A stretch of 62,662 nucleotides of DNA, the filler included, from Nemertoderma westbladi (lineage: Eukaryota > Animalia > Xenacoelomorpha): NCBI GenBank assembly GCA_032718475.1. It is 3 parts of 3 records of this genome, joined end to end, with 100 filler letters (N's around TTAATTAATTAA, not from the genome) between each part and the next. Parts side by side here need not be neighbours in the genome. Positions count along the whole stretch, not along the records: positions 1 to 31,423 come from JAUCBJ010002571.1; 2 more parts are not named here. One strand, 5' to 3'. The position numbers and the translations under genes were made by a program. A model generated the notes under the pieces. The model was not told the DNA's origin. It saw nothing but the letters and a program-made list of their open reading frames with translations, and did not search any database. How positions within the stretch are numbered: the stretch's first letter is position 1; the number at the start of each line of letters is the position of its first letter. This document shows positions 3,051 through 59,705 of the stretch, one piece after another.

Positions 3051-3227
3051 ATAATATAATATATAATATATTATGGCTCCGGACTGGTCCGGAGCCATAA
3101 TATATTATATATTATGCGTTCGAGTGTATAGTAAAAATTTCATTAAAAAAAAACATCAAATAAAATACAAAATTAAATGTACAAATTACAATTACATACG
3201 GTTAAATTTAATATATGAGCTAAAATC
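2833..3227. repeat. Fold-back: 113-bp inverted repeat (2833-2945 / 3115-3227) enclosing a perfect 29-bp-arm palindrome (3056-3115)
   Basis: Direct reverse-complement comparison. The hairpin core is TTATGGCTCCGGAC-TG-GTCCGGAGCCATAA. Confidence 0.9.
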
Positions 3228-13504: not shown

Positions 13505-14764
13505 TGTTCGCGCTTTTGAAGACCTTTAGCAGTTTAACCTGCCAAATTTTATATGTCTTTTAGTTAATTAAAACCACTTTAGCATACGACAATAATTTAT
13601 GCTAATACGCAAAACATTAGCCGAAATCAGCCCATGCGCGATCATTCACCCGATGGATCTACACCCGGGAGACTGAATTCGGATGCTTGAATTGTATTAT
13701 TACAGTGTAAGGTTGCAGTGTATACCTAATGTATTATTCGATAGATCGCTAATAATTAATCTCTGACAGATATTATTGGCTTTCGGGAAATATTAACAGT
13801 TCCTTTAGGACGTGGCGCTTTATCTATTTAAACAGAACTAGGACTTATACTAAACGCAACGATACTGCTTATGATTAAAGTATAAAGCGTATTCTTTAGG
13901 AAATACTTTGTTACCAATCACGATCGTACACACTATTCTGCCGACAGTCAGTACATTTGATCACACATAAAGAGAGCAGTAATTGACTCACGTAGGGTCT
14001 GCTAAATAACATTGGATTCAATACACACCACATTAATATAAATCGCAATTGTTATATATAGCCGGTCTCTCTAACCTGTAGTGTTATCAAGAAAATTGGG
14101 AATTGGGTGATTTATCCGTATTATCCAAATAGCAATATTTCCATCAACAAATATTTACAATTAATAACTGACGGTAAAATAACAGTACAAACAATATGAT
14201 TAATGCAATTAAATTAAGTGAGTATGTTAATTAAGATTGATCAATTAGTTAAGATTCGTTAGGTTAGGTAACAGTTTATACTTTCGATAATTCAAGCAGT
14301 TTACGGTACAGCAGTATCTATCCAAAATGCCGGTGTTTCTGGCTTAGACAGCAATAACAACAAAGTATCAAGAAAAAACAGTAAGACTGAACACTCTCCT
14401 TATGATCGACTAAAAGCTACACGTCGACAGGAAAAACCGCCCTGATTGGCCCAAGCCAAACAAAGAACCACGCGTCCAATGGCTGTTTCCATGTCAGCAA
14501 CCAGCTGCTAGATGTCGTAATATGAATCATCACGGCTAAGCTGTGAAAGGTGGTTGGTACATTACAAGTTTTTTGTCTTACCATGTCCGCCAAAACACGT
14601 ATATAGCAGAATGATTTTTATGTCCGTTAAAACACCTGTAAAGGTACCTTGCGGGCGAGGGGAATATATATACAGTTAGAAAACCTTTTTAGAGTATTCC
14701 AGCGCCTGGGGGGGAACTGGCCAGCAAAGGCAAACGTATCAGTTATCCCACAAAAGCTTTTACA
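13505..14764 (-). repeat. 3' LTR of copy 1
   Basis: Direct repeat of 24706-25965; no differences seen by eye. Confidence 0.97.
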
Positions 14765-14842
14765 CCGCTCCCAGAAAATGGGATTTAAGTCTATAAAATA
14801 TACAAAATCACAGTTTCTAAAATACAAAAATACTCTAAACAG

Positions 14843-16132
14843 TTAGTCTTTCTTGCGCGGACGGCGTTTACGCAGTTTTTTGAAGCTAGCAAGAGTCCTT
14901 TTCTCTTTGGGGCGAGCCACTTTACTAGGAGGGCTATAACTCCTGGGTGAAGGGTGCAATATGATTGCATCAGAAGGTATGGGATTGCGATCGGTATATC
15001 CGCCGGTCGAAGTACCGGGTTGATGGACATCAACGTCCGGGGAGAGGGGTCTAACGGCTTTGAGAGCTCGTTTCAAGACAGCCGCTCTTACGGGTCCTTT
15101 ACGAGTGGTCTGAACGAGGGCCGTGGGTGGACCATAGGCAGTTAGAAACTTCCTTGGTTTAATGGTTCTTTCCAACTCGCGTTCGCGGGCTTGGTACTCG
15201 TAAGGCCGTCGATATACTTCCTGTAACTCGATATGCGTGATTTCTGTTCGACAGAAGCGAATAGATAAGGATGGAACGCATAAATTCCTTCGTAAGCGCG
15301 TCCAGGATAATAGCGATGGCGCGAATCACGATGTAAATCAGCGTTCGCTTCCCAAGCTCTAATGTAACGTAGTGTGATCATTTCATCTACGCTTTCCAAA
15401 TCGCGATAAAAAAGGGCAATCGAAACTGGCGTGTCCCTTTAGTTGACAGTGGTGACATTGAGTCATAAATTGAGGGCAAACCGCAAAAATATGCAAATTA
15501 TTAAATCTGCGATACGCGCAATAAATTTCCATCGCCGGTTGTTCGTGGAAATAGGAACAGCGGACGTTTGTGTCCATGGGCGTAACATGGTCTCTCGATG
15601 CGCATAACCGACAACGTTGCCGAGAAACATAGTTGGCATGGCGATAATCGTACGCAGTGAGACACTGTGGACCTTGATACCATTCTAGGATGTAATCGTT
15701 GTCGTTGTTCCGAGCGCGATAGGCTGAATCTCTTCAGATTCCAGACATATTGGTTCGTCTTCCCAGTCTGTTACGAATAGAATTTTCGTGATCTATTCTC
15801 GGTTTATCGTTACGACGCCGCTGGGTATGATATTTAAATAGAACCATTTCCCTTTCGGTGTCTACATCGTCCGTATCATGTAAATCGATAGGATGGCCGG
15901 TAGTTAAGAAGTCCATATACGTACCATTACGATGCGTATAGCGAGCGGTTAATTTTCGATAGTCCAATTCACACGTAAGTTGCTCTTGGGACATCGGCGG
16001 TTCGATATAACGACCATCGTCCTCCGTAATAGTCGGATCGGCTTCACCGCGTATCAAGCTATCCACAAACGCTTGTAAAGGTAGAGTATATCGCTCTCTA
16101 ATACCAAGGTCATCTTCTATCAATTCCGTCAT
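14843..16132 (-). CDS. Accessory cassette of copy 1: overlapping short ORFs (132-aa acidic N-terminal ORF, CCHC zinc knuckle, basic C-terminus)
   Basis: ORFs 15734-16132, 15383-15577 (CHHCQLKGHASFDC = C-X2-C-X4-H-X4-C), 15142-15399 and 14843-15175 (KKLRKRRPRKKD). Homologous segments occur in the other copies. Confidence 0.6.
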
Positions 16133-16181
16133 ATCTGTTATCTGAGTTTGTTAATATCAATATAAGTTAATATTTTAGGTA

Positions 16182-16325
16182 AGCGGGCGTCGCTTCCTAC
16201 TAGGCCTTTTGCCCCCGGACAGTGGGTTTCTCAGCGCCGATGTACCGCTGTCGCAGTGTTTACGCCAACATGTAGCACAGCACGACAACGATAACCGGCA
16301 CAAGTCCCACCACTGTCCGTCCCAA
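16182..16325 (-). ncRNA. Conserved structured cis-RNA upstream of the accessory ORF
   Basis: Nested stems GGACAGUGG/CCACUGUCC, GUGCCGGU/AUCGGCGC and UAUCGUUGUCGU/GCGACAGCGGUA, with a covarying counterpart at 45078-45225. Confidence 0.6.
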
Positions 16326-17756
16326 AGGCTTGAATCCACTTGAGGTTATCTCGGTAGAGTTAGGGCTATTTTACAATTGCGATTAGCTACTGTAAACACA
16401 CTTTAGTAGTAACATTCACCTATAAACGCACAAATTCCATACAATCATTACTTACTGCACACATGCATACCATTTGTCCGTTAGTCAGTGTCTTCCAGAA
16501 TGTCACGTATTTACTATGTATCCTTGGATACTAATAGTGCGCTATGTATACTCTTATGCTACGCAATGGGGCAAGCCTTTTATTTTTCCCTTAACTTACT
16601 TCTAATTCTAGCGTGGGTGTTGCCATGGTGACATTATGGAAAACTAGCGGTAGAATTAGGGGCAATTCTCATGTATACAGATCTGGGATGTTATTTAATA
16701 GTAATTCTTTAATTGTCAATATCCTCTTTATGCATGATTTTATAAATTTTATCGGCTATTGACTATATGCTGGAGATTCTCACACTCTAGTACACTCAAT
16801 ATGAATCTCCGCTCCCATGATCTATTAATTACTGGGATTTTGGGAATGTTATAAATTGCACAAAATGACAATTTATGAAATTCATTTGAATATGAATTTA
16901 AATTTATTCCCGTGAATTTTATTATTTGATATTAAATTGACATAAATTTTATTCCAGAGCATATCTGGGAACTTAGGATCCTTAATTCTATAAAATAGTC
17001 CTTCTAAGAATATCGGTAAATACTGTGATATCTTAATTGACTAGAAATTTTAAAGGATCGGGATTTTACAGATTTTAACAAAATATTAAATTAATATTTA
17101 GGATGGGCACCATTTTATTCCAGAACTTGTCTGGGGACGTTAACCACTGATTCTAGAATTTGTCTTTCAAGTATATCGGTGGGTGCCACGATATCTTAAT
17201 CGACTAGAATTACAGATGGTCAAAAGTTTAACAGATTTATTTGCGATTTACGCTACTGTTAGAGGGACATCACGCTACTATATGTATTATTTGTTATAAG
17301 GTAGAAGAGCAATATCGCACGAAGCAATGTCAGTGTGAAGAGGCAAGTCGTTTCCAAGGTCTACCCAGAGCTTGGTTTAGCCGAGACACGAGGATCTGAA
17401 CTTTGCATTCCTAATACTCTGCCTACCAATAATACTTAAATATAGTAGTGGCTTTACTGTACTTTAAGAAGTACTGACATGTCATCTTACTATAGTCTCG
17501 CATTTATAATATAATACGGACAGTAAGGAAAGAGAAAATAATTACTTCTTGCCGTCGCACTAAATATATATTATAAGTAATTATGTACGTAATAAACACT
17601 AATATATTGCACTAATCTACTAAACATTCTAAAATAACATTTTACTAAATAAAATTAAAGAAAACGATTATAATAAAATTACATAATAATACATACATAA
17701 ATATAAAATAAAAACAAATATAAAATGATATAGTCACACGCCCACTCCATATGTTA

Positions 17757-20366
17757 TTACGTTATGGAGTCCCTAGATATTTGTCGGATTAGGGAAGTGG
17801 TCGTAGGAAGAGTATCTTGCCTTCCATAGTTTCCGGACAGTTTTCGGTCTCTTTCCAGTAAACATAAACGACTAGCTGGGCGATTGAGTGGTTGTGTTAG
17901 TTTCTCCGCTCCCTTGGCCTGTCTACTCTCCGCCGTGGTAAGATGAGGAGGCCATTCTTCTTCTTCTTTACTTAAGAAGTCGGATCCACCTAACCAGCCT
18001 GGAGTATCTATCAGTTCTTGAGGAGTTGCTCCTCTGGAAGCGATGTCGGCTGGATTAATCGTCCCAAGGCAATGTCTCCATTGATCTACATTGGAGTTAA
18101 TATCGTCATTATCTGAGGAGTATGGTGTTCCCTCAGTTGGGTCGTCCACATCACTGCTCTCCACTTCCCCCTTTACTTGGTATACCTGTTGTTGAGGTAA
18201 TCTCTCTTTGAGAGTTCTACGGGAAGGGCCAGTGAAGTACCAACCTACTCTAGTTCTTACCGCATAGGTTTGTAGTGGCTGTGGTTGAGCAGGCCGTTTC
18301 TCTAATGGCTCGAGCGCCTCATGCGCGTTTTGGCCGATGAGGATTTGCACTCCAGGATAATCGGTTTGGAATCGAGGTATCTCAAGATGTTGGATGCACT
18401 CATCCTCGTCCCAATTATAAGGTTCTGCTTGAGTAGTAGCAAAGTTCTTGATAGCCACCATTTTTACTGACCTTATACCTCGTGTTCCTAACTTATCCTG
18501 GGGGGTGGACAACACACCTACATAGTAATCTGCCGTTAGGGTAGATTTCCAAACCTGCATAATTCCTGACATATTCAATTTAGTCCGGAACTTGGGTTGT
18601 CCAGCAAAGATATCTTCGGCTAGTTCTTGATCGATGAATGTTCCTGTGCTGCCGGAGTCAAGTAGGGCGTTCACTATGTAACTCTTGTTGGGACCATGAA
18701 CTCGAACTTGCACTACAGGAAATTCTCTTATTCCTATGTTGGAAGTTGGAACTTTCCAAGATGGTTGTTTGTCAAAAGGAGTTGGAGTAAACTCATCAGT
18801 GTCCTTTTCATCCGTAAGTGCTCGATACACTGTGGTATTTATTAGATAACAGGATTCGTTGGCATCGGAGAATTCGTCTGTATAGAATCCTTCCCACTCA
18901 GAACCTTGGTCAGTGTCGTTCACATCACTGAATTGGACATGTAGTTCGGGCTCACTTACCTGACTCGGGTTGTCTCGTTCGAACTCACTGTGTAACAAGA
19001 TGTGATGTTTCGCGCCACACTTTGCACACTTTACGTCGGAGTAACAGGTTCGCCGTTGGTGTCCTGATCTGAGGCAATTATAGCATAGCCGCTTATTCCA
19101 CAGGACTGTACGTCTGTCTACAGGGGATTTCTTTAAAAATTCAGCACACGCACTCAAACGGTGGGGCCCGTCGCACAGCGCACATTTTGGTTTGATGTTA
19201 CTCACCTTAACTTGGTTAACGTTCTGCACTCTCGTTCTTTCTTCGGGCTTTCTTCCGTGAATTCTCTTAGGAGACATAGGAGGAGTTGTTGTTACCTGTT
19301 CTCTCCTGTCACTGGTTCGAGACTTGTATTTACTTACGTCTTTATAGGTCTTGTCAATATAATAAGATCGTTCGGTGTCTTTCCCGCTGTCTTCGTCTTG
19401 GGAAACTTGGCTTTCGCCGTCTTCAGTGTAACACACTGGTGTTACTCTTCTCCTGGAAGTGGGTTTCTCACTTACCTTATTTTCCGATGTTTTCTCTCTG
19501 GCTTGCTTGATGAGTTGTAGTCTGACTTCACCATCCAAGAACGACATGAGATCAGCCATGGTAGGGCTTCGTCGTTGTTGGTCATTCATGTACAACACTT
19601 TCTTGTCCCAGCGTGTACATACTCCACCCTTTGGTAAAGTAGAGACTACGGCTCCAATAACCATGGAACTCTGGTATTCGTGCGACTTACCTAACCAGTC
19701 CAGTTGTCTACAGATCTCTTGTATTTCATCGGAAAACTCTATAATCCCACTACTAAGGAAGTGTCGGGGGGCTACTAATTTTGTATACAAATACTTAGCT
19801 ATGTTATCTTTGTTACCATACCTGATGTTTAATGTATCCCAAACTTGTCTTAGTCCATCTGGATGTCCAATAAACTTTAACGCCATTAACTTGGGAGGTC
19901 CTTCCAAACATTTGATGAGGAATCTAAGTTTCTCTCCGTTAGATAGTACAGAGTTCTGTATGCTATCTTTGTAATATTCGTTGAAAGGTAACCATTTCAT
20001 CTCATCCCCATTGAATTTGACGATCTCTCCCACTTTGACCGCTTGGCGGGCTTCTGTTCTAGCCATCTGACGCGTAAAGCTTTCTTGGGCCATCGTGTTA
20101 TTTAATATCGAATTATCGGTATACAAATTTCTCGGATCATTATCAGGTCTATAGGGAATATCATCAATAACAGGTCTATAATCACCCTTAATAGGGTTTG
20201 CTATAGGAGTTTCAACTTCACTAGCAGTATAGATGCGTGTAGGCTCCACACCTTGCGCATGTGATACTTCAGACCTAACGGGTTGACTCAATGTTACCGG
20301 GGGCATTGGTATGCCTTTTTGTATATTGACTAATTTGTCGCGTTCTAGCGCGATACTTTGCTGCAC
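17757..20366 (-). CDS. gag-pol: BEL Gag core + zinc knuckles + aspartic protease, fused by deletions to an RNase H tail and the integrase C-terminus
   Basis: KFNGD..KWLPF and EKLRFL..CL Gag core; CALC..PH....C / CYNC...GH....C / CAKC...HH.LLH; ALLDSGS; ILIGQN; WRHC..INPADIASRG; RPASRLCLLE. Confidence 0.9.
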   Translation of the reverse strand: MQQSIALERDKLVNIQKGIPMPPVTLSQPVRSEVSHAQGVEPTRIYTASEVETPIANPIKGDYRPVIDDIPYRPDNDPRNLYTDNSILNNTMAQESFTRQMARTEARQAVKVGEIVKFNGDEMKWLPFNEYYKDSIQNSVLSNGEKLRFLIKCLEGPPKLMALKFIGHPDGLRQVWDTLNIRYGNKDNIAKYLYTKLVAPRHFLSSGIIEFSDEIQEICRQLDWLGKSHEYQSSMVIGAVVSTLPKGGVCTRWDKKVLYMNDQQRRSPTMADLMSFLDGEVRLQLIKQAREKTSENKVSEKPTSRRRVTPVCYTEDGESQVSQDEDSGKDTERSYYIDKTYKDVSKYKSRTSDRREQVTTTPPMSPKRIHGRKPEERTRVQNVNQVKVSNIKPKCALCDGPHRLSACAEFLKKSPVDRRTVLWNKRLCYNCLRSGHQRRTCYSDVKCAKCGAKHHILLHSEFERDNPSQVSEPELHVQFSDVNDTDQGSEWEGFYTDEFSDANESCYLINTTVYRALTDEKDTDEFTPTPFDKQPSWKVPTSNIGIREFPVVQVRVHGPNKSYIVNALLDSGSTGTFIDQELAEDIFAGQPKFRTKLNMSGIMQVWKSTLTADYYVGVLSTPQDKLGTRGIRSVKMVAIKNFATTQAEPYNWDEDECIQHLEIPRFQTDYPGVQILIGQNAHEALEPLEKRPAQPQPLQTYAVRTRVGWYFTGPSRRTLKERLPQQQVYQVKGEVESSDVDDPTEGTPYSSDNDDINSNVDQWRHCLGTINPADIASRGATPQELIDTPGWLGGSDFLSKEEEEWPPHLTTAESRQAKGAEKLTQPLNRPASRLCLLERDRKLSGNYGRQDTLPTTTSLIRQISRDSIT

Positions 20367-22460
20367 TTATTGCAACTCTGCTCTACTTTCCCTCACTGTT
20401 CCCTTAAGTTGGTGGACAGTCTCCTGCATCTGTCCTAGCAGAAGATTCATCCCCCGCCGTCCCTCTTCCACCCACTCAACCGCCGAAGCGGGAGTCGCCA
20501 ACATAGTAGCGGGCTGACGCGGGACGACGGGAGACAAATTATTGATTTCTCTCTCTGCTATCTGGACAGGGGTATTTGCATGGACTGTTCCACCGGGTAC
20601 AGGCAGTGTAGTGCTATGTAAAGGGAATTTAGAGTTAAGCTCTGGAAGTGCAGGGGTCTCTAGCATAGAAGTGACTTTGGGAATTACAGGCCTAATTATT
20701 TCAGGTTCATCGACTATAGTAGGGAGTCTTTTGACCTGGATAAATTGTTCTATAGGTTCCGCACTACCTAAATCTGTGCTAGTTAGCTGTCTTTTAACAG
20801 CTGGGGGCAAATCAGGCAATTTACGACGGTAATATGTTTTTCTACGCCTACTTAGATGAGATCTATCTCCTCCGCCTTCAGGGTCGGTAGTATCGCCTTC
20901 CTCCGATGAGGTGTACCCCTGGCGCTTGGGAGTAGATTTTCTCATCATCTGCATTTGATTAGCAGTAAACTGTTTATTTATACTGTCTTGTGTCTCTTGC
21001 AGATTTTCCAACTCCAGTTGGGTAGTCTGCTCAGAGGCTCTCCGTTCTGCTTCGGCCACTGCCCTTTCCGCCTTTGCTTCTGCCGCCGCTGCCTTTCTTT
21101 TTGCTTCTGCTTCTGCCGCTGCTGCCCTTCCTTTTGCTTCTGCTTCTGCCGCTGCTGCCCTTCCTTTTGCTTCTGCTTCTGCCGCTGCTGCCCTTGCTGC
21201 TATTCTTTCTGCTTCTACTTCTGCCGCTGCTGCCTTTCTTTCTGCTTCTGCTTCTGCCGTAGCAGCCGCCTTTTGTTCCTCTATCCTTCTTTTCTTTATT
21301 TGTTCTTCTCGGACTCTAGTGAGACGGAGTTTTTCATCACATTCAGCTTGGTTTGCAGCTAACATTTCGGTATCGATCGCGTCCAATATAAGCTTGGTTC
21401 CTTCACTATTAGGGGAAAGTCCATGTAGCCGTCTCCTCAACTCTTCGTCTCCTAGGAATCGCTGATAGTCGGACAAATAAATGTCGATAGCGTCTCTAGT
21501 TCGCGGTTTCTCGGCGGCCTCTTCGCTTTCCTCTTGAGCAAGGGTGACATCAGTTTGTTCGGAGACATCAGTTGGTTCCTCATAGATTGATCTCTCAGCC
21601 AGCTGGGATTTCCACTGGGCTGTTTCCTGTACTTTGAGATCTACTCGATGTAACCAAGTTTTGACAGCAACCTGCAGCGACGTGTCTTGTCTTCTTTTGG
21701 AAGTTTCCTCAAAGGCTGAGAGGATTAGTCGAATGCGTAGGGTTCTTTCGCGTATTTGATATAGCAGTTCTTCCTGCTCTTGAGGTCCGTGAGGTTGTCG
21801 AAACAGTTGTTCCTCCAATCGCTCCAAGGATCCGAAGAATCCCTGCACATATCCTGCTGCCGACCTCTTCCAAACAGCTGGATCCATTGTATCTTGAGCC
21901 ACTCCCATCCTGTGTATATCTTCCCAAGTAGCCTCGGACATATCAAACGGAAGTCCGAGTCCGGGAAAGTTCCATTGTGATTCAACAATAGATCTCAATT
22001 CTTCCCTGGCGTATCCCGCGTAATTATCTTGGGTCGCTTGCTTATTCTTCGCCCAGTCGGCTTGATGTTCCTCCACCGCAATGAGTATAGTAGTTAGCAC
22101 TGCAGCAGGAAGAGTAAGAAGGGGGTCCGAGTAGACTGTATCAGCCATCTGCACTCCATGTTCGGGAGTCAACTCTACAGTATCCGAACTGCTGGAGCTA
22201 TCTGGTCTCTGGGAAGTAGGTTCTTGACCAAGATGTTGCTGCGATAGGACAGCTGCCTCTTGGTCCCGTTTTACCTGTGCCCGAGTGCCTATGATGGACC
22301 TATGGTGGACTAGCCTAGGGTCTGATACTACTGGAGGGATGACCTTTTTTACAGTAGGAGGTGAGCCGAACCTCTCTATTATTCGCTCCACACTCCTATC
22401 TGAATCACAGATAGTGGTCTCGATCAGACTGTCCGACAGGTTTTGCTGAGTGTCAGACAT
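20367..22460 (-). CDS. gag: Long N-terminal Gag extension (697 aa, coiled-coil, AAAEAEAK repeats)
   Basis: In frame with 17757-20366 and separated from it by one TAA; homologous to 52018-53986. Confidence 0.8.
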   Translation of the reverse strand: MSDTQQNLSDSLIETTICDSDRSVERIIERFGSPPTVKKVIPPVVSDPRLVHHRSIIGTRAQVKRDQEAAVLSQQHLGQEPTSQRPDSSSSSDTVELTPEHGVQMADTVYSDPLLTLPAAVLTTILIAVEEHQADWAKNKQATQDNYAGYAREELRSIVESQWNFPGLGLPFDMSEATWEDIHRMGVAQDTMDPAVWKRSAAGYVQGFFGSLERLEEQLFRQPHGPQEQEELLYQIRERTLRIRLILSAFEETSKRRQDTSLQVAVKTWLHRVDLKVQETAQWKSQLAERSIYEEPTDVSEQTDVTLAQEESEEAAEKPRTRDAIDIYLSDYQRFLGDEELRRRLHGLSPNSEGTKLILDAIDTEMLAANQAECDEKLRLTRVREEQIKKRRIEEQKAAATAEAEAERKAAAAEVEAERIAARAAAAEAEAKGRAAAAEAEAKGRAAAAEAEAKRKAAAAEAKAERAVAEAERRASEQTTQLELENLQETQDSINKQFTANQMQMMRKSTPKRQGYTSSEEGDTTDPEGGGDRSHLSRRRKTYYRRKLPDLPPAVKRQLTSTDLGSAEPIEQFIQVKRLPTIVDEPEIIRPVIPKVTSMLETPALPELNSKFPLHSTTLPVPGGTVHANTPVQIAEREINNLSPVVPRQPATMLATPASAVEWVEEGRRGMNLLLGQMQETVHQLKGTVRESRAELQ

Positions 22461-23804
22461 GTTTAGTTATACAGTTGAATGTCTACTACTATAATTTCAG
22501 TTAAAGCAAGTCTAGTAATTCAGTATGACCGCAAGCTTAGCGATTTATTACCGGTACCGTTACTCAGTGGAACGTGATATATATACAATATATTAGAATA
22601 CCGGTATGCTTATAATATATAAGTATTATTACAGACTAGATTTGTCACAGAGTACCGGTATATAATTTTAGCACAAATATATATATATATATAGTAGGCC
22701 TATAATGAATACCGGTATACAGCTTACACTTACAGCATGTAAGTATAATTATGAACTAGAATTAATTACAGAGTACCGGTATGATTTCCGCTCAAATTTA
22801 TAGAGATAAATATAATAAGCCTATAATGAGTACCGGTATGTCAATTATTTTAGGATAATTGAATTTCTGAATATTTTGGGGTTACTTCGTTACTTTAACT
22901 TACTTTATTACCGTTATTTAAGCAGTAGTCCAACTGACAGTGAGACCTAGTTGTTGTATGGCAGGCCTACTATTTATAAATCGTTTGAGTTGATTTATAA
23001 TAGATATATACCCGTTTAAAAAGGGTTTTTGACAATATTTGAAATAAATGTTATTATTTCTGGGGAAGTCACTACACAGAAGCTGAGCGCTCTCAGTGAA
23101 GTGTTATTTATTTGACACTAAAACTGATAATTCTAATTTACCTAAGTTACTTAATACTACAAATTACTTACGATACGGGTGAGATTAATTCTCTAATTAA
23201 ACACAACAAAATATTACGGACGAAATTTTTAGGGTAATTTTACAGGAAGTCTACAAACCAGTCTAACAAAGGGTTAGATTTCTGGCTATTACAAAGGACA
23301 GGGTACTACGGTATTTAAATAATAAGTAGTAGTAAATATATTGTACTGTCCAGATAGGAAAATACCACCGCCTGACGACCTATAACCGTATCGCTATAGG
23401 TACAACGTTATGTATCACGGATTGTTCCTACCCAGAAGCTAATAGAGCTAACGAATGTGCCTATCAACCACTTTACAACACAAATATACTGCCTACACTA
23501 ATTACTTCGGAAGGCACTGTACTCTAAACCCTAAATTAGGTACAAGTACCGGTATAACAAATAATCAGTAGTTAAATATACTTGAACAGTTAAAAGAACC
23601 ACGGCATCTGCTGGAGTGACCGAAGCACAAAGTCGTCAGTCTTTACCTACGCCAAGCAGCCCTGATGTAGTACCGGGGTTAGTTTAACTATAACGGTATG
23701 TATAACAAGCACAATTACTGTAGGAATAAACTTGGGGACATGAATGTTGCGAATAATCGCATAAACTCTGAATAATAAATATTACGCTACCCGCACAGAA
23801 TACT

Positions 23805-24345
23805 CAAACAAATACAAACCAAAACGCTGGCAGACTACTATTAAGCCTAAACAAACTACTGTATGTGCAGATTCTGAAACTGTTAGTTAGTATGCGTTCT
23901 AACACGGTAGTACGACTTACTCTTTAAGAGGGGATTGACCTTACCGCTTATGGCTGCCCCAACTTACTAACGGCACTTGATCAGACCAACTCTACACACG
24001 CAGCAATCCCTTCAGACCTAAAAATAGCTAGACAACAATCCAGCCTACAAATATTTGAGTAATAACTATTACGGTACCTGAACAGACCACACAAACAAAC
24101 ACAGGCCAAAACACTGGCAGACCACGATCAAGCCTAAATAAACTACGGTATATGCAGACTCTGAAACTGTTAGTTAGTATGCGTGCTAACACGGTAGTAC
24201 GACTTATTCTTTAAGAGGGGATTGACCTTACCGCTTATGGCTGCCCCAACTTACTAACGGCACTTTATCAGACAAACTCTACACACGCCGTAATCTCTCC
24301 AAACCCAACCACAGTCAGACAGCAGCTCAGCCTACAATTATCTGA
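23805..24345. repeat. ~288-bp tandem duplication in the 5' leader of copy 1
   Basis: CCAAAAC(G/A)CTGGCAGAC... at ~23819 and ~24106; only one copy is present in element 2 (~55370). Confidence 0.8.
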
Positions 24346-24690
24346 ACAATCTGAGCAGGGTCACACGCCTTCTGCTCAATATTAGCCTACTAGTAAATAA
24401 AACCAACAGAAATAAGTAGAATCTCAAATAAAAAATCAGGGCGGCCGTTCCCTGATTAAGTACCAAGACCTACCGGTATACAACAATCAAAATCGAATAA
24501 TACTAATGTACTTGTACAGCAGTACCGATACCGGTGATGACAGTTAGGCCTACTGACCTACAAAGTACCGGTTCAGTTTTACCAGTCACTACGGTATTTT
24601 GCAACCCTATTGCCTACTGCAATAAGATTGTAAACCGTTACTGTTCGACAGAACAGTATTAAACTGTATTTAATGCTTACACTGCAATAC

Positions 24691-24705
24691 AGTATAAACT
24701 GTTAC
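24691..24705 (-). promoter_or_regulatory. Non-tRNA primer-binding site, complementary to LTR-internal 25469-25483
   Basis: Plus AGTATAAACTGTTAC is the exact reverse complement of GTAACAGTTTATACT inside the LTR. No TGG follows the LTR on the sense strand. Confidence 0.7.
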
Positions 24706-25965
24706 TGTTCGCGCTTTTGAAGACCTTTAGCAGTTTAACCTGCCAAATTTTATATGTCTTTTAGTTAATTAAAACCACTTTAGCATACGACAATAATTTA
24801 TGCTAATACGCAAAACATTAGCCGAAATCAGCCCATGCGCGATCATTCACCCGATGGATCTACACCCGGGAGACTGAATTCGGATGCTTGAATTGTATTA
24901 TTACAGTGTAAGGTTGCAGTGTATACCTAATGTATTATTCGATAGATCGCTAATAATTAATCTCTGACAGATATTATTGGCTTTCGGGAAATATTAACAG
25001 TTCCTTTAGGACGTGGCGCTTTATCTATTTAAACAGAACTAGGACTTATACTAAACGCAACGATACTGCTTATGATTAAAGTATAAAGCGTATTCTTTAG
25101 GAAATACTTTGTTACCAATCACGATCGTACACACTATTCTGCCGACAGTCAGTACATTTGATCACACATAAAGAGAGCAGTAATTGACTCACGTAGGGTC
25201 TGCTAAATAACATTGGATTCAATACACACCACATTAATATAAATCGCAATTGTTATATATAGCCGGTCTCTCTAACCTGTAGTGTTATCAAGAAAATTGG
25301 GAATTGGGTGATTTATCCGTATTATCCAAATAGCAATATTTCCATCAACAAATATTTACAATTAATAACTGACGGTAAAATAACAGTACAAACAATATGA
25401 TTAATGCAATTAAATTAAGTGAGTATGTTAATTAAGATTGATCAATTAGTTAAGATTCGTTAGGTTAGGTAACAGTTTATACTTTCGATAATTCAAGCAG
25501 TTTACGGTACAGCAGTATCTATCCAAAATGCCGGTGTTTCTGGCTTAGACAGCAATAACAACAAAGTATCAAGAAAAAACAGTAAGACTGAACACTCTCC
25601 TTATGATCGACTAAAAGCTACACGTCGACAGGAAAAACCGCCCTGATTGGCCCAAGCCAAACAAAGAACCACGCGTCCAATGGCTGTTTCCATGTCAGCA
25701 ACCAGCTGCTAGATGTCGTAATATGAATCATCACGGCTAAGCTGTGAAAGGTGGTTGGTACATTACAAGTTTTTTGTCTTACCATGTCCGCCAAAACACG
25801 TATATAGCAGAATGATTTTTATGTCCGTTAAAACACCTGTAAAGGTACCTTGCGGGCGAGGGGAATATATATACAGTTAGAAAACCTTTTTAGAGTATTC
25901 CAGCGCCTGGGGGGGAACTGGCCAGCAAAGGCAAACGTATCAGTTATCCCACAAAAGCTTTTACA
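24706..25965 (-). repeat. 5' LTR of copy 1
   Basis: Direct repeat of 13505-14764, lying upstream of gag. Confidence 0.97.
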
Positions 25966-26404
25966 GTATTAAATTACCTTTAAGGTCGAAAATGGGGCGA
26001 AATTATCGGATTTTATTAATGTAAAGTGAGATTTTGCAGATTGTTTCATAATTTCGATAATTTCGTTGATAATCTCGTCTTTTTCGTGGTTTATAGGTAC
26101 AGTAACTATCCCTGTTATTGTGGTTATACTGTATCTCCGAGGAGATAAGTTATAGTTTTAAGTTAGGACTGTTTACTGGCAGGAGTTTTATATCAATAAA
26201 TTGAATTGAAGTATCTACTGTATGCCCTATCTGCTTTATAAATTAATTATCTTGAACTTTAATAATCTGTTTTATTGATTAATGATATAAAAATGGTGTA
26301 GTAGTGATTTAAAAATAATTACAAGTGTAAGTGATTTATATTGGTGAAATTTATTGAAAAATAATTTATAGACTGTAAATGACTCCGTTAAAATGAAAAC
26401 CAAC

Positions 26405-28828: not shown

Positions 28829-31423
28829 TGTTCGCGCTTTCAGACCTTTGGCAGTTTAACCCGCCAAATTAAGATGTCTTCTAGATATTAAATCGCTTTT
28901 TAGCCTATGACAAGTATTTGATTCACTACACTAGTCGAAACCAATCCGTGCGCGACCATTCACCCGCTGGATATTCCCGGGAGATTGGGTTCGACGGTTT
29001 AATTTTATTGCTATGTAAGCTTAATGTATTATTCGACTGACAGTATTATATAATCTCTGACAATATTATTTACCTTCGGGAATATTAACAGTTCCTTTAG
29101 GACGTGGCGCTTTATCTATATAAACAGAGTTATGACTTAAACTACTCACAACGATATGGCTTAATTATAATTCACATATATGGCGCATTCTTTAGGAATG
29201 CTTCTTTAACAGACTCACTCATACACAATGCTGCACAATACTGCACACTAATCTGCCGATCTTCACTGATTTTAGTCACATATAAAAGGAACACAGACTG
29301 ACTCATGTAGGGTCTATCAAATAACATTAGATTCACTTCAAACCACTTTAACATAAGTCACAATCGTTTATCTGTAACCTTTCTCTCTTACCTTCGGTAT
29401 ATCAAGAATATTGGGTTTCGGGGTTATTTCTCGTTATTCCAAATATAATAATTCATCAACCATATTATGAAGAACTGACAGTAAATAGCAGTATAACAAT
29501 ATAAAAGTATGCACAGTGTTACACAGTATGCAGTGTATGCAGTACTGCAGTATGCAGTGATTACGAAATTGCAGAGTGTTTGTTTCGTCAGTTAAAGGAT
29601 ATATGTCCTTGTAATTAAACCTACTAGTGTTGAGCTAAAAAGCAGAAAGCACAAAACACTAAAAAGCCGTTCTTTCGTGGCTTTGAAAAACTCGTGACTA
29701 CTGCTCTATACGAGGATACCAACTCCCTTATTCCACGAAGCTCCCGTTCAACACAGAGAAAGAGCAGTGAGATAGGAAATTTTCAGTTCAGTACTCTGTG
29801 ATAGGTCGAAATCAAGGCTAACTCAAATTCTATTGGGAGATACAAAACAAGGCTATGACGCAACCTCCCTAGGCTTGTTGGCCGATTAAACAGAGCCCAG
29901 ATGCCTGCGTACAGCAAATCAGCCAATAAGTTGGTAACTTGCACTATTTTTAGTTATAGATCACTTTGAGAGTATTCTTAGCGACTGGGGGGGAACTGGC
30001 CAACAAGGCAAACGAATCAGTTATCCCACAAAAGCTTTTACACCGCTCCCAGAAAATGGGATTTAAGTCTATAAAATATACAAAATCACAGTTTCTAAAA
30101 TATAAAAATACTCTAAACAGTTAGTCTTTCTTGCGCGGACGGCGTTTACGCAGTTTCTTGAGGCTAGCAAGAGTACTTTTCTCTTTGGGGGGAGCCACTT
30201 TACTAGGAGGGCCATAACTCCTGGGTGAAGGGTGCAATATGATTGCATTAGAAGGTTTGGGTTTACGGTCGGTGTCTCGTCCATTTCGATATGCTTTTCC
30301 TCGAGCTGATTTTCCTCCGCTTGTCATGGGATACGTTCGTCCAAAACTCTCGCAGAGAATAGGGTTTTCTAAGCTTGATATCTTCTTTGAGATTCGAGGT
30401 TTCCCAATCGAACTGAGATAAGGCCAATTCGTTTATCGATTGGACTTACTATTATAACTTACGTTTATCTGAACAAACGCAGGTTTCCTTTTTGATCTTT
30501 ATAGAATAGCGTTTAACTCGTTTCGTACAACGCTCTCCTTCACCTTGATGAGGGGTTGTATCGCGTTAAACGTGGACGACCATACGGTTGGATAGTGATA
30601 TTAGGTGCCCGCGTCACAATCCGGCTAGGTAAGATGGGCGGCTAGCTAGAAATCACTGTCGGAGTGTTACCGATTAATTGTTAGGGTAGCACTAGATCTT
30701 TGAACAGTGAATACAGTCCGCGAGGATCCGCGACACCACCAGGATCGCAGGTCTGAGGTCCAACTAAGGAATGAGGAGGTTTGACCGAGTATTCCGGGAC
30801 TCTGATCGTAGGTTTACTCTAGGATCGTTAGAGCCGAGTGAGCATAGGTGATACGTCAAACAAGTTTCGCTCGAAACTCCAGTAAATATAACGAACACAA
30901 CTGTGTTTATCACAACGTTTCCGTGGATGTTTATGTCTTTCCGTTTATTGGCTGGATCTAGGGCATTTACAGTAATAATACCAAAGACGCACGTTTGGTA
31001 GGGGAAACGCGGATGATATTTATTTGTTGTTACAATGCTTCTATCAAGAATTCCAAATATATGTTGGAGTTACCGCGTTTATTTGTTTCTTTAATGTCTT
31101 TTCTTTCGAGCCGATTTCGAATAGAATTTTCTCATTCGAATTTCAGCTTATGGTTCCGACTCCGCTGGGCAGGATATATAGTCGACATAGTCCGTATTGT
31201 GTAAATTGATAGAATGACCAGTAGTTAAGAAGCCCATATACGTACCATTACGCTGCGTATATCGAGCGGTGAATTTCTTATAGTCCAACTCACGCGTGAG
31301 CTGCTCTTGGGACATTGGCGGTTCGATATAACGACCATCATCCTTCGTAGTAGTTGGACTAGTATCACCGCGTATTAAGCTATCAACAAACGTTTGAAAG
31401 TAGAATATATCGTTCCCCGATAC
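28829..31423 (-). mobile_element. BEL family copy 3: 3' LTR (28829-30042) plus decayed accessory region, truncated by the gap
   Basis: TGTTCGCGC...AAGCTTTTACA LTR followed by the same PPT (plus CCGCTCCC). The KKLRKRRPRKKD, RLWYYC and YIEPPMSQ segments are present. Confidence 0.92.
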
Positions 31424-31523
31424 NNNNNNNNNNNNNNNNNNNNNNNNNNNNNNNNNNNNNNNNNNNNTTAATTAATTAANNNNNNNNNNNNNNNNNNNNN
31501 NNNNNNNNNNNNNNNNNNNNNNN
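31424..31523. other. Assembly gap with six-frame-stop linker TTAATTAATTAA
   Basis: 100-nt N block with a central linker; an identical one is at 59606-59705. Confidence 0.95.
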
Positions 31524-34500
31524 TGGGGCGGGTGGTAAAACGTCCTAAGTCAAATTTTCTCAAAATTCATGTTTTGAGTGAATCGGGTATAAAATTGAAT
31601 TTCCCTCCTTTCTACCAAAGGATTAGTGATAAAATAACAGTTTAACGGAGTTATTTGCAAATTTTCAGTTGTCCTAAGTTAAGGCTACGGATGGTAAAAC
31701 GTCCTAACTTTATACTTAAGGTGGTAAGTTGTCCTAAGTCGAAAAAACGATTACAAATAACGAATTAAAAGTGAAACATAGGACGTTTTGTCACGTTAAA
31801 GGTCAGTCCAGACAGGAGTTCCATTACTATTAATAGTTAGTATTTATTTTGTTGCTGAACAGCATTTAGTGATTCCAGAAAGACCAAAATGTCGCAATGT
31901 TTAGTAAGTATTCTAGACAGAACTAATTCAAGATTAATACTGATCAATTCTTTATATAACTTTTATAAAAGCCTGGAAGAACTACTGAGCTCATTTGACC
32001 TAGTACAGTAATACTGTAGTAGTAAGTAGTACATAGTGTGAGGGCAAACAATACTGTTATAAATGTATTGGTAGAGTAATAGTGGTTTTCTCTTTATTGG
32101 TTAAATTATCCTTATACATTTAATATGTTAGGTGTTAGCTCTATAATAGAGTTTTATTAGAACCTCGAGTTAGTCAGATACTACTACAGCACACAATATT
32201 AGACTATGAGTGGTAAGAGGTATAACAGTAGAGAGGCTCTACAAATATTAATGAATGAATCTGATTGTCCCGAGTTTGACAATTTTGGAGATTTAGAAGT
32301 CATGGATATCGATAATTCAAATGATAACATCGATGACTTACGAGATCTGGAAATAATGAATGTTTTTGATAACAGTAATGCAATACATATTTCGCCACCA
32401 ATGATAGAGGAAGATGGTAACATGGTGAAAAGTTTTGAAGATCCAGATATCATGGATAATTCATTTAATAACTTGATCAATGAAATAGGAGATGTAGAAA
32501 GTATGGATGATGTTGATAAGGATAACATTGAATACCTGAATATATTAATAGAAAACGAAAATATTCGAATTTCACCAACAATGTCGGAAGTTGGAAACAT
32601 TGTGAATAATGTTGATCATAGCTATGCTAGCCCCAAAAGTAAATCAGACCGTGGAAGACGATTAAAGCCGAAATACGGAAGGCATACTGTTAAATATCTA
32701 AGAACAAATAATAAGAGAGCTAAACTTAAAGGCTTGGCATATAGGAAAAAGAGAGGTAAGGGGAATATAGTGGCTCCAAAATCTGTGGTTGAGCTCAAGG
32801 ATAATTTTTGTTGTAAACGGCTTATGTGTGTTGACAAATTTTCACCAGAACAAAGGCAAGTAATTTTCGAAGAATTCTACGATCTCGGAAGTAGTAATGA
32901 AAAATATGCCTGGGTTGTTTCTCATTCAAAGATAATTCCTAAAAAAAGTGGAATAGTGACACTTGAACTGCGCAAGAGACGTCAAAGAATAGATAAACGT
33001 TTATTCTTTATCCAGAGTGGGTTGGAGGTAGAAGTATGTAAACCATTCTTCCTTACTACATTGGGATACAAGGCATCAAACAACAGGATACTAAAAACAT
33101 GTATGATGAAGTCGTGCGAGAGTGAAAGTCGATTTTTGGACCACAGCTTTGAAGAAAGTGGGGATCGACGTGGTAAAAAAGCCCCACCAAACAAATTATC
33201 AGATAGTGATAGGTGCTATATACGACAACACATCGAGTCTTTTCCATCATTACCATCACACTATGCTCGCAAAGGTACAAACAGGCTATATTACCAAGGA
33301 GATTTAACTCAGAAACGGATGATTGACGACTATAAATCAAAGTGCATGAAAGATGGGGTCAAGGTTCGCTGTGAAAGAGTATACAGAGATATTTTTAATA
33401 ATGAGTACAATATTGGATTTCATAATCCTCGCAAGGATGATTGTGCAAAATGTGCAGTGGAATTTATATTGAAGGGTGACGAAAGAGATCGTTATGTTAA
33501 AGAAGTAAAGGAACCCCACTTAGAACTGCATCATCAATGCCAAGCAGAAAAGGAAAAGGACAAGGTGATTTCCAAACAAAATTTATCATTTCGGTCGGTA
33601 AATTTTGATCTACAGAGTGTATTGCAAGCTCCATGTAGCAATGTGTCAAGCTTCTATTATAAGGGGAAACTTCAGGTGTACAACTTCACCATATACAACC
33701 AACGAAACCATGATGGTCATTGTTTTCTATGGGATGAAACAACTGGAGAACGTGGATCCAATGAACTAGCTAATTGTATATGGTGTTATATTAAGGGTCT
33801 TCCACCTGTGGTAAAACATTTAGCGACATTTAGTGATACTTGTGCAGGACAAAATCGGAACCAAAATCTTGCTGCTATGTGTTTGTACGCAGTCACACAA
33901 ACATCATATGAGACAATTGATTTAAAGTATCTTGAAAGTGGACATAGCTATATGGAAGGGGACAGCATGCACTCCGCAATAGAGTATGCTAAATCTAATC
34001 AGGTAGTATAAGTTCCTAATGATTGGACAAATATAATTCTAGGAGCGAGGCGAAATAATCCATATAAGATCACTTGGTTAAAACAAAGTGATATCTACGA
34101 TTTCAAGAAACTATGTAAGGTTCTTATTGTTAACCGTCGTGTAATAAGTGACATTAGTGTCAATGATACAGTTGAAAAACAGATCAGTGTGGAGGTTGGT
34201 GTAGGGAATGGTGGACAGGTGAATGGTGAACGAAGGTGTGAACGAATAGGTGAATGTAGTGGTGAACAGGTCGTTGAAGAAAGGGGTGGATTTATTGGTG
34301 GAAGGAGTGGTGAACAGGTCATTGAAGAAAGGGGTGGATGTATTGGTGGACAGAGTTGTGAACAGGTCATTGAAGAAAGGGGTGGATGTATTAGTGGACG
34401 GAGTGGTGAACAGGTCGTTGAAGAAAGGGTTGGATGTATTGGTGGACGGAGTGGTGAACAGGTCGTTGAACAAAGGGGTGGATGTATTGGTGTATTGCGA

Positions 34501-36140: not shown

Positions 36141-36210
36141 GTGCTGTACAGATAGTGCAGTAGTGAGAGCTGACTAGCTGAGAGGGCGATTCGGTAGGCC
36201 TATATTGTAT

Positions 36211-37074
36211 ATGGCAGAGGCAGAGAGTATCGGTAGCCAAGTTAGTTCCCATCATAAAGATACTCTAAGCGATAACGACGATTGGGTGGCGTCTATCGAC
36301 GAAAAGTTAAAACAAAGATGGGAAAGAGAACAACAGAAGCTCCAAAAGGAATTAGTCCTGGAAAACAGGGAAGTTTGGCAGAACGACTCAGAATTTCAGG
36401 GTTTATCTGTTATAGCGGGAGCCGATCTAAGTTTCATAAAAGGGTTCGAACGCGACGCCGCTGCCTGCGTTGTCGTACTAACATACCCAGAACTGAAAGT
36501 CGTCCATTCCGACGTCATTGTCGGCGAAATCGACGCCCCTTACATCCCTGGATTCCTCGGCTTCAGGGAAACTCCTCTAATACTGAAGTGTTTGAAACGA
36601 ATCGAAAGTAAAACTGATTGGCGTCCGCAGGTATTGTTTGTGGATGGGAATGGCACTTTGCATCCTAGGGGTTTTGGTTTAGCGTGCCACCTCGGTGTTC
36701 AAAGTGGCATCCCTTGCGTGGGTGTCGCGAAAAATCTCTACATATTTGACTCGCACATGACTGATTATAAAACTAAATCTGAACACAAGATGGCGCATCG
36801 AGATATGGTTAGCAAGATGAAGTCCGGTTTATTAGAATCTGAACAGCCAATCAGAAACGACGATGGTGTGGTAGTGGGTAAAGCTATCCTCTCAGGGGCA
36901 AACTCCCGGGCCAATCCCGTCTACGTATCCCCTGGCAACCTTGTTACCATGGCGACCAGCGTCACTTTGACTCGAGCAGTGACTCGGTTCCGTGTCTGTG
37001 AACCTGTCCGGCAGGCGGACATTATTTCTAGACAATATCTCAGGGATAATTACCCTGGATTAATTAACTCATGA
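36211..37074 (+). CDS. ENDOV: Endonuclease V (inosine-specific nuclease), intronless, 287 aa
   Basis: IAGADLSF, PYIPGFLGFRE wedge, VLFVDGNGTLHPRGFGLACHLG, GVAKN, PVYVSPG, EPVRQAD. First ATG at 36211. Confidence 0.95.
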   Translation: MAEAESIGSQVSSHHKDTLSDNDDWVASIDEKLKQRWEREQQKLQKELVLENREVWQNDSEFQGLSVIAGADLSFIKGFERDAAACVVVLTYPELKVVHSDVIVGEIDAPYIPGFLGFRETPLILKCLKRIESKTDWRPQVLFVDGNGTLHPRGFGLACHLGVQSGIPCVGVAKNLYIFDSHMTDYKTKSEHKMAHRDMVSKMKSGLLESEQPIRNDDGVVVGKAILSGANSRANPVYVSPGNLVTMATSVTLTRAVTRFRVCEPVRQADIISRQYLRDNYPGLINS

Positions 37075-38090
37075 ATCATTTATAAATATAATTATTCTGT
37101 ATAAATATATTTTATAGTTTTATTTACCTCACATATTTGACTATAATTTCCACATTTATAAATTCTAAATATTGGTGCGTTTTGTTAATTATGTCTATAA
37201 TTTTTAATTTGAATATGTTAGACCATTTGTTTTTATTTTTAAATTATTATATTTTAATTAGGCCTACCGCTACCGGTACTATGTTTCACAATCACACATG
37301 ATCCATAACAACCACAGTAATTATGTAAGTATTGATCCGTTAAGTAAGTTATGTAAATAAGTATTTACCTGTAACCAATGGACGGTATCTCGTTATCTCG
37401 TTGGTGAAGAATTGACGACTTATAGTACCGGTATTGCCATTAAGTATTATACTTAGTATGGGTCCATTACATAATAAACGCCATATTAGTGCGTGAATGA
37501 AATGGAATGATATTGCCTTTTAATTATGTTTGTTATACTGTATATTAAATTAATTAACCCAGCACCACAAGTAATATAGTAACCGGTACCGGCGACAGTC
37601 TTACATAATGGGGGGGGGGGGGGGGGGGGGGCACTTTACATACTGTATAATAATTATCCACTCTATAGCACTAAACTAACCATTACTACTCTACATAAGG
37701 TGTCACTTGTAAAAAGTGTTAGTGGGTCACTTGTAAAAAGGTCTTCCTTCTCTATCCTATCCACTCCAGAGATTACTATGATACCTCCAGTAACCAGGAC
37801 GTGCTCTACATTTCAGAAATAATATATATAATAAGTTATGATTGTAGATCCTTATCGCCCCTTGGGTACCCGTTACATAACGCCCCTGGGTCTTTATCGC
37901 CCCCGAGTCTTTATAGCCCCTGGTCCTTTATCGCCCCTTTCATTATATACAGGCTACATTCCCTCAACTTTCCCATATCTGTCACATATATTTTAGTTAT
38001 AGTTTACAGTATAGATAAAGTCAAATTGTTTCAGTTTTAGAAGGCCTACAATTAATTTGAACATCCAAACCTGATATCAGATAGCTGAAT

Positions 38091-38523
38091 ATGGACTTCG
38101 GAATGGTAGAATATCGGTTAAGTAAAAAGAAAAACCCTCAACCGGTTTACCGTAGCAATGCGCATGAAGACACACTATTTAGATTTACGGTGAAAAAACG
38201 TAACAACGATGGCACAGTTAATATGCGTTGTGTTGGGAGCGACAATGTAAACCATAGACGTGCACAAAGGACACCATCTCGTACTAATGCAACAGCAAGA
38301 ATTCGTAATGACCGATAGATTACTAATCCAGATGAAGGAAACCATATTTGTTTAGATACACTCAATCAATCAACCGCAGTTATCACTGCTGTACACGAAT
38401 ATAGAGAGACAGCTGCGGGTTTACGTCAATCTGCCAAACGGCCTGCTCAGGCTCACAATGATACATTGGAGCGAGTTAACAAGCGCTACGGAAATACACC
38501 TGATTTGGAACGAGAAATACAGG
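38091..38523 (+). pseudogene. FLYWCH/MULE-transposase N-terminal-like remnant
   Basis: FRFTVKKRNNDGTVNMRC...ATARI...GNHIC pattern; the frame stays open past one stop to CAG|GT at ~38522. Confidence 0.4.
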
Positions 38524-38677
38524 TAGCTAAATAAAATAATAATAAAGTAAAATAAATTCAACATTATTTGTATGTTGTACAGTATAATAAATAATAATAC
38601 ATGTATAATATACTGTATGACTTGGAATGTACAGTATTTTTGGTCGAAATATTCATATTTAATTCATAGACTAAGCA

Positions 38678-38830
38678 GCAGTCGCTTTGTCTAGTGGTAA
38701 TAATATGGGCTTTCATTCAGGGGGTCCCAGTTCGATCTCTGGACGACGCAGCGTCCAGATTCAGTCTGTTTGGGCTTTAAATGCTGCAGACTAGCTCTAC
38801 CCAGATTGTCACCCTTCACTGGTCGATAAA
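38678..38830 (+). mobile_element. tRNA(Glu)-derived SINE-like head and body; inverted copy at ~39880-40028
   Basis: GTCTAGTGGT A box, CTTTCA anticodon loop, GTTCGATCTC B box, followed by CCCTTCACTGGTCGATAAAT. Confidence 0.6.
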
Positions 38831-39523
38831 TCAGATCTATATAAAATTTGAGCTTTACACTTTAACAAAGCCGACTCCAGTTTGCAGGACATTGCTTTCG
38901 CCATGAGGACCTACCTTGCACAATCGTGTTCTTTGGAGGAAATAAGCATGATGGACAGCCCATGACTTTCTTGAGACACCTCTTTAAGGACACTGGCCTT
39001 GAAGATTTGGATGATCTCGCGAAAGTCATGGTGGATTGTACTGTAGTAGGTCGATAAATGAAGTTGAGATTGGTAAACATAGTAGAAGGGTTTACTGTGG
39101 AAGATCACCCATGGTGGCGAACATGCATTCCACGGCTTAGTAAGTATAAACGTTTCTCCAATTCAAAATTTATATTTGTTATAGTGGCGATAAGTTACCA
39201 GGGGCGATAAAGACGCGGGGGCGATAAAGACCCGGGGCGATATATTCCCAAGCGGCGATAAAGGACCATTTGAGGGGCGATAAGTTCCCAGGGGGCGATA
39301 AGGGCCAGGGGCGATAAGGCCCTACAATCTTTCAGAAATAATATATATACATTATAATTGTAGGGCCTTATCGCCCCTTGCACCTTTATCCCCCCTGGGA
39401 ACTTATCGCCCCTTGGGTACCCGTTACATATCGCCCCCAGGTCTTTATCGCCCCTGGTATCTTATCGCCACTTTTACAAATATGAATTTTGAATGGGAGA
39501 ACCGTTTAGGCCTGGTAAAGCCA

Positions 39524-39840
39524 AGGAATGCCTGTTTACCGCCATGCCATGGGCATGGGTGATCTTCCACATTAAATCCCTCCAGTCTGTTTCCTAAAGG
39601 AATGCCTGTTCACCACCATATGGGTGATCTTCCACATTAAATCCTTCCAGTCTGTTTCCTAAAGGAATGCCTGCTCACCACCATGGGTGATCTTCCACAG
39701 TAAACCCTTCCACTCTGTTTCCTAAAGGAATGCCTGTTCACCACCATATGGGTGATTTTCCTCCACACTAATTCCTTCCAGTCTGTTTCCTAAAGGAATG
39801 CCTGTTCACCACCATTGGTGATTTTCCAGAGTAAACCCTT
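39524..39840. repeat. ~60-70-bp minisatellite, about 5 copies
   Basis: AAGGAATGCCTGTTCACCACCAT..GGGTGATCTTCCAC...CCTTCCAGTCTGTTTCCTA repeated. Confidence 0.85.
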
Positions 39841-43606: not shown

Positions 43607-43684
43607 CCGCTCCCAGAAAATGGGATTTGAGTCTATAAAATATACAAAATCACAGTTTCTAAAATATAAAAATACTCTAAACAG

Positions 43685-49560: not shown

Positions 49561-49587
49561 GGGCTCTACAGCCTCTTGAGTAAAGAA

Positions 49588-55888: not shown

Positions 55889-55900
55889 TATAACTGTTAT
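55889..55900 (-). promoter_or_regulatory. Non-tRNA primer-binding site, complementary to LTR-internal 56624-56635
   Basis: Plus TATAACTGTTAT versus ATAACAGTTATA inside the LTR. Confidence 0.7.
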
Positions 55901-59605: not shown

Positions 59606-59705
59606 NNNNNNNNNNNNNNNNNNNNNNNNNNNNNNNNNNNNNNNNNNNNTTAATTAATTAANNNNNNNNNNNNNNNNNNNNNNNNNNNNNNNNNNNNNNN
59701 NNNNN
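59606..59705. other. Assembly gap with linker
   Basis: N block containing TTAATTAATTAA. Confidence 0.95.

Follow-up and report, generated by a model that had tools for sequence, protein, structure and literature searches.

A BEL/Pao retrotransposon family of Nemertoderma westbladi with a candidate self-primer in its own LTR

Element copies and other features of the window

The window, by which we mean the whole stretch of 62,662 nucleotides from the Nemertoderma westbladi genome that was analyzed, consists of joined contigs with N linkers at 31424-31523 and 59606-59705. It contains two full BEL/Pao copies, both on the minus strand, together with a solo LTR nested in one of them and a third copy that is cut (Table 1). 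Gag-Pol protein families (Pfam matches to Peptidase_A17, 3e-22; DUF1759, 2e-12 and 7e-11; DUF5641, 3e-16), the protease-RT-RNase H-integrase order in copy 2, TG..CA LTR ends, a purine tract and a target duplication identify copies 1 and 2 as BEL/Pao elements by sequence. Protein searches gave 462 matches; all of the 120 that were listed have Peptidase_A17, at 34-44% identity, and the named relatives among them are from aquatic animals. The Pfam search found no chromodomain in the window element.

Copy 1 has kept the Gag and protease region and is devoid of RT, most of RNase H and integrase. Its LTRs are 100% identical, with TG..CA ends, and its 5-bp target duplication is intact, so that its last copying was recent and took place with its present primer site. 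Because it was recently copied and yet has no RT of its own, this site likely works with enzymes supplied in trans. Copy 2 comprises protease, RT, part of RNase H and integrase, with several broken frames, and is colinear with relatives. Its LTRs agree at 620 of 623 and 512 of 523 aligned bases, in the halves on either side of the inserted solo LTR. Copy 3 is limited to a 3' LTR and 1.4 kb, cut by the N linker at 31424, and its primer site is unreadable since the 5' part of the element was lost at this assembly linker. The sequence-only reading of this DNA had counted on a third copy with a motif of its own: a diverged motif does lie in register close to the position it had given, but there is no usable full copy. 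The primer site predicted for copy 3 has no exact match elsewhere in the window.

Four LTR types can be compared in the window. About 700 nt at the LTR 3' end (24706-25400 and the homologous parts) are 73-80% identical between types, whereas the U3 parts barely align. The R-U5 in the region of 24706-25400 is unusually long and conserved and has no Rfam match; an Rfam search over 23500-26200 gave a single match with an E value of 4.7.

Several further features accompany the copies. The copy 1 ORFs at 20367-22466 and 17757-20366 (both minus strand) are a 699-aa ORF and, in frame with it and separated by one stop codon, the Gag-protease ORF; the 699-aa ORF contains an alanine/glutamate repeat and has no Pfam match. 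Extra short ORFs, one with a weak zinc-knuckle match, lie between pol and the 3' LTR (14843-16150, minus strand) and are conserved in copies 2 and 3. The copy 1 leader carries a 287-bp tandem duplication (23769-24345, minus strand) that is single in copy 2. Elsewhere, there are an uninterrupted endonuclease V ORF (36178-37074, plus strand; Pfam 1e-53), a 602-aa ORF with a weak DUF7869 match that adjoins a 48-bp tandem repeat (32203-34011, plus strand), and fragments of another reverse transcriptase (1271-2868, plus strand). At 59706-62662 (minus strand), an open frame for RT, RNase H and integrase represents a different BEL/Pao family; it has no LTRs and is cut by the linker and the window end. 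Long inverted-repeat pairs at 2833-3227, 5671-6630, 7448-8369 and 37918-40204 resemble miniature DNA transposons.

Table 1. Coordinates of the BEL/Pao copies and of their observed or predicted pairing segments, counted along the window.
Feature	Position	Strand	Remarks
Copy 1	13505-25965	-	non-autonomous BEL/Pao element; LTRs, 5-bp target duplication, Pfam matches
Copy 1 5' LTR	24706-25965	-	1260 bp
Copy 1 3' LTR	13505-14764	-	1260 bp; short purine tract just upstream in sense
Copy 1 putative primer-binding site	24691-24705	-	directly adjoins LTR terminal CA, no gap; no TGG
Copy 1 candidate self-primer	25469-25483	-	LTR position 483-497; exact complement of site
Copy 1 second U5-end/primer-site-like copy	24631-24647	-	in leader, 64 nt downstream of site
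Copy 1 leader segment	24676-24689	-	predicted outer flanking duplex with 24899-24912
Copy 1 LTR partner of leader	24899-24912	-	within 16-nt stretch absent from copy 2
Copy 1 inner-duplex site	24836-24845	-	predicted pairing with last 10 nt of LTR; conserved in four LTR types
Copy 2	41257-57055	-	BEL/Pao element with 5-bp target duplication; solo LTR interrupts its 3' LTR
Copy 2 5' LTR	55901-57055	-	1155 bp
Copy 2 putative primer-binding site	55889-55900	-	adjoins LTR; no TGG
Copy 2 candidate self-primer	56624-56635	-	LTR position 421-432; complement of site
Copy 2 leader segment	55868-55883	-	predicted outer duplex with 56077-56092; also one arm of local hairpin
Copy 2 inner-duplex site	56020-56029	-	predicted pairing with last 10 nt of LTR
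Solo LTR, same group	41780-42983	+	own 5-bp target duplication; nested within copy 2 3' LTR
Copy 3 3' LTR	28829-30042	-	diverged motif in register at 29591-29603

Primer sites that pair with the own LTR

The premise of the sequence-only reading, that BEL/Pao elements are generally described as tRNA-primed, matches the ICTV description of the Belpaoviridae, according to which an 18-nt site is complementary to the 3' end of tRNA-Arg or tRNA-Gly, a host tRNA primes, and replication is poorly understood (PMC8742986). The window element is like these viruses in its LTR of about 1.2 kb, short purine tract, protease-RT-RNase H-integrase order and Pao-type families, but unlike them it is without a tRNA-Arg or tRNA-Gly site. 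In both copies, the bases next to the LTR confirm the claimed lack of a TGG, and thus of a site of the tRNA type (18 nt, tRNA 3' end, as ICTV has it). No tRNA gene lies within the window.

The bases that adjoin the 5' LTR are complementary to the LTR itself. The pairings that had been proposed, 15 nt in copy 1 and 12 nt in copy 2, are both exact and correctly placed, and each has a counterpart in the 3' LTR: the copy 1 motif recurs identically at 14268-14282, and the copy 2 site also pairs with 43175-43186. The motifs of copies 1 and 2 share one column block in an alignment of the four LTR types, and the solo LTR retains the copy 2 motif at 42249-42260, as had been claimed. A G/A substitution and a 1-nt indel separate copies 1 and 2, and we find both mirrored in site and motif, in line with the earlier reading. 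An equally long anchored complement arose by chance in 0 of 20,000 dinucleotide-type LTR shuffles for copy 1 and in 11 of 20,000 for copy 2. The polarity of the pairing suits priming, because the motif has its 3' end paired with the base that adjoins U5.

Contigs of other family members diverge from the copy 1 site beyond about base 12-13, and skip 60-71 nt at the duplicated site in the copy 1 leader. A rare form of the site with one T fewer has a depth of 304 of about 71,000 in the contigs of X2. In the contigs aligned to the window, no variants at or above 1% are listed inside the motif at 25469-25483, and many unlike loose ends start at 25453-25468, just 3' of it. A 20-nt LTR pattern had no match in metagenome, viral or genome contigs, and Pol queries found no relative in viral contigs.

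Folding gives different pictures for the two copies. Under a pseudoknot-free model, the primer helix of copy 2 has a mean probability of 0.51-0.98 in 6 of 6 folded windows, while that of copy 1 has a probability of 0.00-0.04 in 6 of 6; in the structure printed for copy 1, the motif pairs with the duplicate site 64 nt downstream instead. The self-priming retrotransposon Tf1 needs two more duplexes, in which sequence beside the primer site pairs with parts of the LTR downstream of the primer (accessible text of PMC10085805), and the window copies have candidates for both. For the outer duplex, the best leader pairing falls at homologous LTR positions in copies 1 and 2 and involves different letters in each (14 and 10 of 300 shuffles; p 0.007 and 0.086 in a second test), and the copy 1 leader also pairs over 15 bp with the homologous site of the solo LTR. 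For the inner duplex, the last ten bases of the LTR pair best at a homologous inner position (p 0.079 and 0.126 for copies 1 and 2); with a 30-nt query the signal is not significant in either copy (100 of 300 shuffles in both), and the best site of copy 1 lies elsewhere. The predicted inner and outer duplexes are nested and cross the primer helix, a pretzel layout that is beyond the pseudoknot-free folding program. In 17 relatives, neither duplex gave a signal (Fisher p about 0.9 for both). We tentatively suggest that the window copies may form Tf1-like flanking duplexes, and that these would be peculiar to the family with the long loop.

Primer sites of related elements

Covariation across the family had been named as a check on self-priming, and we addressed it with 99 relatives that were fetched by RT alignment. 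Of the 560 stretches confirmed in metagenomes, the best 80 were taken, and of those in genome contigs all 19. The 19 contigs with L081-L099, which are animal-type BEL/Pao elements, are filed under bacterial MAGs and likely represent host DNA that entered the bins. Usable relatives were the 21 of 99 in which the LTR 3' end is fixed by the point where two LTR copies diverge. Scoring covered contiguous as well as spliced complements in one test against 300 leader shuffles, with only GT required at the donor. The primer site is a 10-15 nt complement of the own LTR in 18 of these 21 relatives, at no more than 5 of 300 shuffles each, a count in which 11 of the 18 positive loci stem from one accession series and L012 and L013 are one family, and for which the permitted offsets were extended, once the results had been inspected, from 0-3 to 0-6 and the LTR end of L020 was shifted by 8 nt by hand. 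The letters of these sites are unrelated, and each site fits its own LTR. Between the sister loci L084 and L085, the positions that differ in the site are also those that differ in the partner. The outcome of the check speaks for self-priming.

Only 5 of the 18 have a contiguous complement like that of the window element. In the other 13 (L003, L009, L012, L013, L019, L020, L024, L027, L052, L053, L084, L085 and L090) the complement exists only across a GT-AG intron of 76-511 nt inside the LTR, which is retained in the 3' LTR DNA. The donor reads GTRAG in 10 of the 13, though the scan asked only for GT. The partner ends in A-pyrimidine in 16 of the 18 relatives, as do both window motifs, and lies upstream of the poly(A) hexamer of the LTR in 15 of 18. 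Site and partner are separated by a loop of 44-204 nt in relatives, versus 720-760 nt in the window copies. Among the three remaining usable relatives, L036 has a TGG-type site and no self-complement, and L088 and L098 could be assigned neither a self-complement nor the TGG class. In 13 further loci that were scanned without a fixed LTR end, a spliced complement of 11-15 nt was the best match in 6. A splice-junction primer was also considered for the window LTRs and rejected (best match in copy 1 of 7 nt, p 0.26; none in copy 2); on their pairing, the window LTRs are of the contiguous kind.

We built an RT tree with FastTree from 95 rows, which holds the window element and unnamed relatives only. 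Contiguous forms are scattered among spliced ones, with 5 changes; several of the spliced calls on this tree stem from a blind scan, from identity with a sister locus (L015) or from a match that is imperfect (L088). This pattern is compatible with repeated intron loss. Neither site label clusters beyond shuffles (47 and 176 of 500). The RT of the window forms a long branch, and among rows whose site is known the closest to it is L036, of the TGG type, with support of 92.

A model for priming and its alternatives

From the exact pairing, its polarity, the covariation and the 18 of 21 relatives, we infer that the window BEL/Pao element probably uses its own LTR motif as minus-strand primer, in a manner like Tf1, as the sequence-only reading had proposed. 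This would likely be a known mechanism at work in a superfamily for which it has not been described. In Tf1, a motif at the RNA 5' end anneals to the site, RNase H cuts, and RT extends (accessible text of PMC7175516 and PMC5341516); the primer has 11 nt and is cut by RNase H, which agrees with the earlier statement that about 11 nt of the own RNA are used (PMC7175516, same text). According to the available parts of PMC6317226 and PMC4600332, the Tf1/sushi and Tcn1 groups are self-priming, and the TAR copia lineage is predicted to be so.

In Tf1 and Tf2 of Schizosaccharomyces pombe, in Tj1 and Tosmo, and in the Tf1/sushi and Tcn1 groups generally, there is, as here, no tRNA site, and the site just past the 5' LTR complements the LTR. 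Tf1 also shares the short primer and, going by the accessible descriptions, possibly the two flanking pretzel duplexes. The differences are that Tf1/sushi elements are Ty3/gypsy chromoviruses, whereas the window element has BEL/Pao proteins without a chromodomain match, that the Tf1 primer of 11 nt compares with a complement of 12-15 nt and a loop of 720-760 nt, and that a start site and cleavage are predicted for the window element. Most of the BEL/Pao relatives, moreover, need splicing to make the primer, which the Tf1 literature, as far as accessible, does not describe. The TAR lineage of plant Ty1/copia elements (Houba, Osr-1) is alike in that self-priming was predicted from sequence outside gypsy, but belongs to the Copia superfamily of plants; it is the second superfamily with the proposed trait in the accessible text of PMC6317226, and BEL/Pao would be the third. 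Our literature searches turned up no self-priming BEL/Pao element; an earlier mention may exist in subscription papers, Repbase entries or supplements. The accessible text of PMC3601003, PMC13524379, PMC8220671 and PMC6934838 does not report it, and that of PMC3118150 and PMC6238403 contains neither the word "primer" nor "tRNA".

The model for the window element would run as follows. Transcription would start at or upstream of the motif, not necessarily just before it, so that the motif comes to lie near the RNA 5' end and could fold onto the site across the 720-760 nt loop, probably with the help of two flanking duplexes like those of the Tf1 pretzel. RNase H would then cut 3' of the duplex, after A-pyrimidine, and free a 3' end for extension by RT. 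In retroviral replication generally, plus-strand copying of the primer regenerates the primer site. Here, plus-strand synthesis would copy the primer into the site of the next generation, which would explain why the indel is mirrored in both partners.

The motif could alternatively be a TATA box, present on the RNA only in its 3' LTR copy. The pairing would then be a 5'-3' contact serving to circularise the genome, for strand transfer or packaging, and priming would be achieved by other means. The resemblance that the sequence-only reading had pointed out is real: three LTR types have TATAA within the motif and the fourth has TATAT, none of the four has another TATA box 25-35 nt upstream of it, and a CCAAT box is found about 180 nt before the motif end in three of four. 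Because the motif has TATAA and no other TATA box precedes it, the start site is not readable from the sequence. The fit to the TATA consensus is nevertheless poor in three of the four LTRs. The contact reading is weakened further by the relatives, whose partner sequences, in the equivalent functional position, do not resemble a TATA box, end at a fixed A-pyrimidine and in 15 of 18 cases precede the poly(A) signal. A TATA-like word within 90 nt upstream of the partner occurs in 3 of 17 relatives, in two of them at -31 and -26 from the first base of the partner. In 13 of the 18 relatives the complement requires intron removal, and the intron is still present in the DNA of the 3' LTR; the simplest view is that the copy in the 5' LTR does the pairing. 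A TATA box would, finally, leave the element without a primer, and we consider this explanation unlikely.

Another possibility is that RNA of the element does prime, but in a way unlike Tf1, the source of the primer being the 3' LTR copy, a second RNA packaged along with the first, or an LTR-derived small RNA. The long loop and the failure of the cis helix of copy 1 to be predicted speak for such a source, and the many LTR copies of the family in the genome could yield such RNAs. Against it, the helix of copy 2 does fold in cis, and the candidate flanking duplexes suit a cis structure, so that we regard a primer of this kind as improbable. Priming by a host tRNA fragment or other host RNA, or by a leader hairpin, a proposal made for fungal GalEa, with the LTR match as a secondary structural switch, is very improbable: half-tRNA priming exists in Copia lineages (accessible text of PMC6317226), the one TGG-type relative among 21 is near the window element in the tree, and a hairpin follows the primer site in both copies as it does in GalEa (accessible text of PMC6934838), but two copies in one genome differ by a substitution and an indel that a host RNA would not track, nor would it match the sites of 18 relatives, which are unrelated and each fit their own LTR.

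Self-priming from the own LTR may not be confined to the window family. It is conceivable, though we hold this with less than even confidence, that self-priming is the normal mode of a large BEL/Pao branch of aquatic animals in which the primer is usually made by splicing an LTR intron. The window family would then have branched off without the intron and would span a loop of 750 nt by means of a Tf1-like pretzel that evolved separately.

If self-priming is true, a third LTR superfamily, including most of the relatives that we sampled, would have tRNA-independent priming. LTR finders that insist on a tRNA site would overlook or wrongly annotate such elements, and host control by tRNA fragments would not reach self-priming BEL/Pao elements. 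The primer site would itself predict the transcript start and the position of the cut. In the spliced relatives, host splicing would gate reverse transcription.
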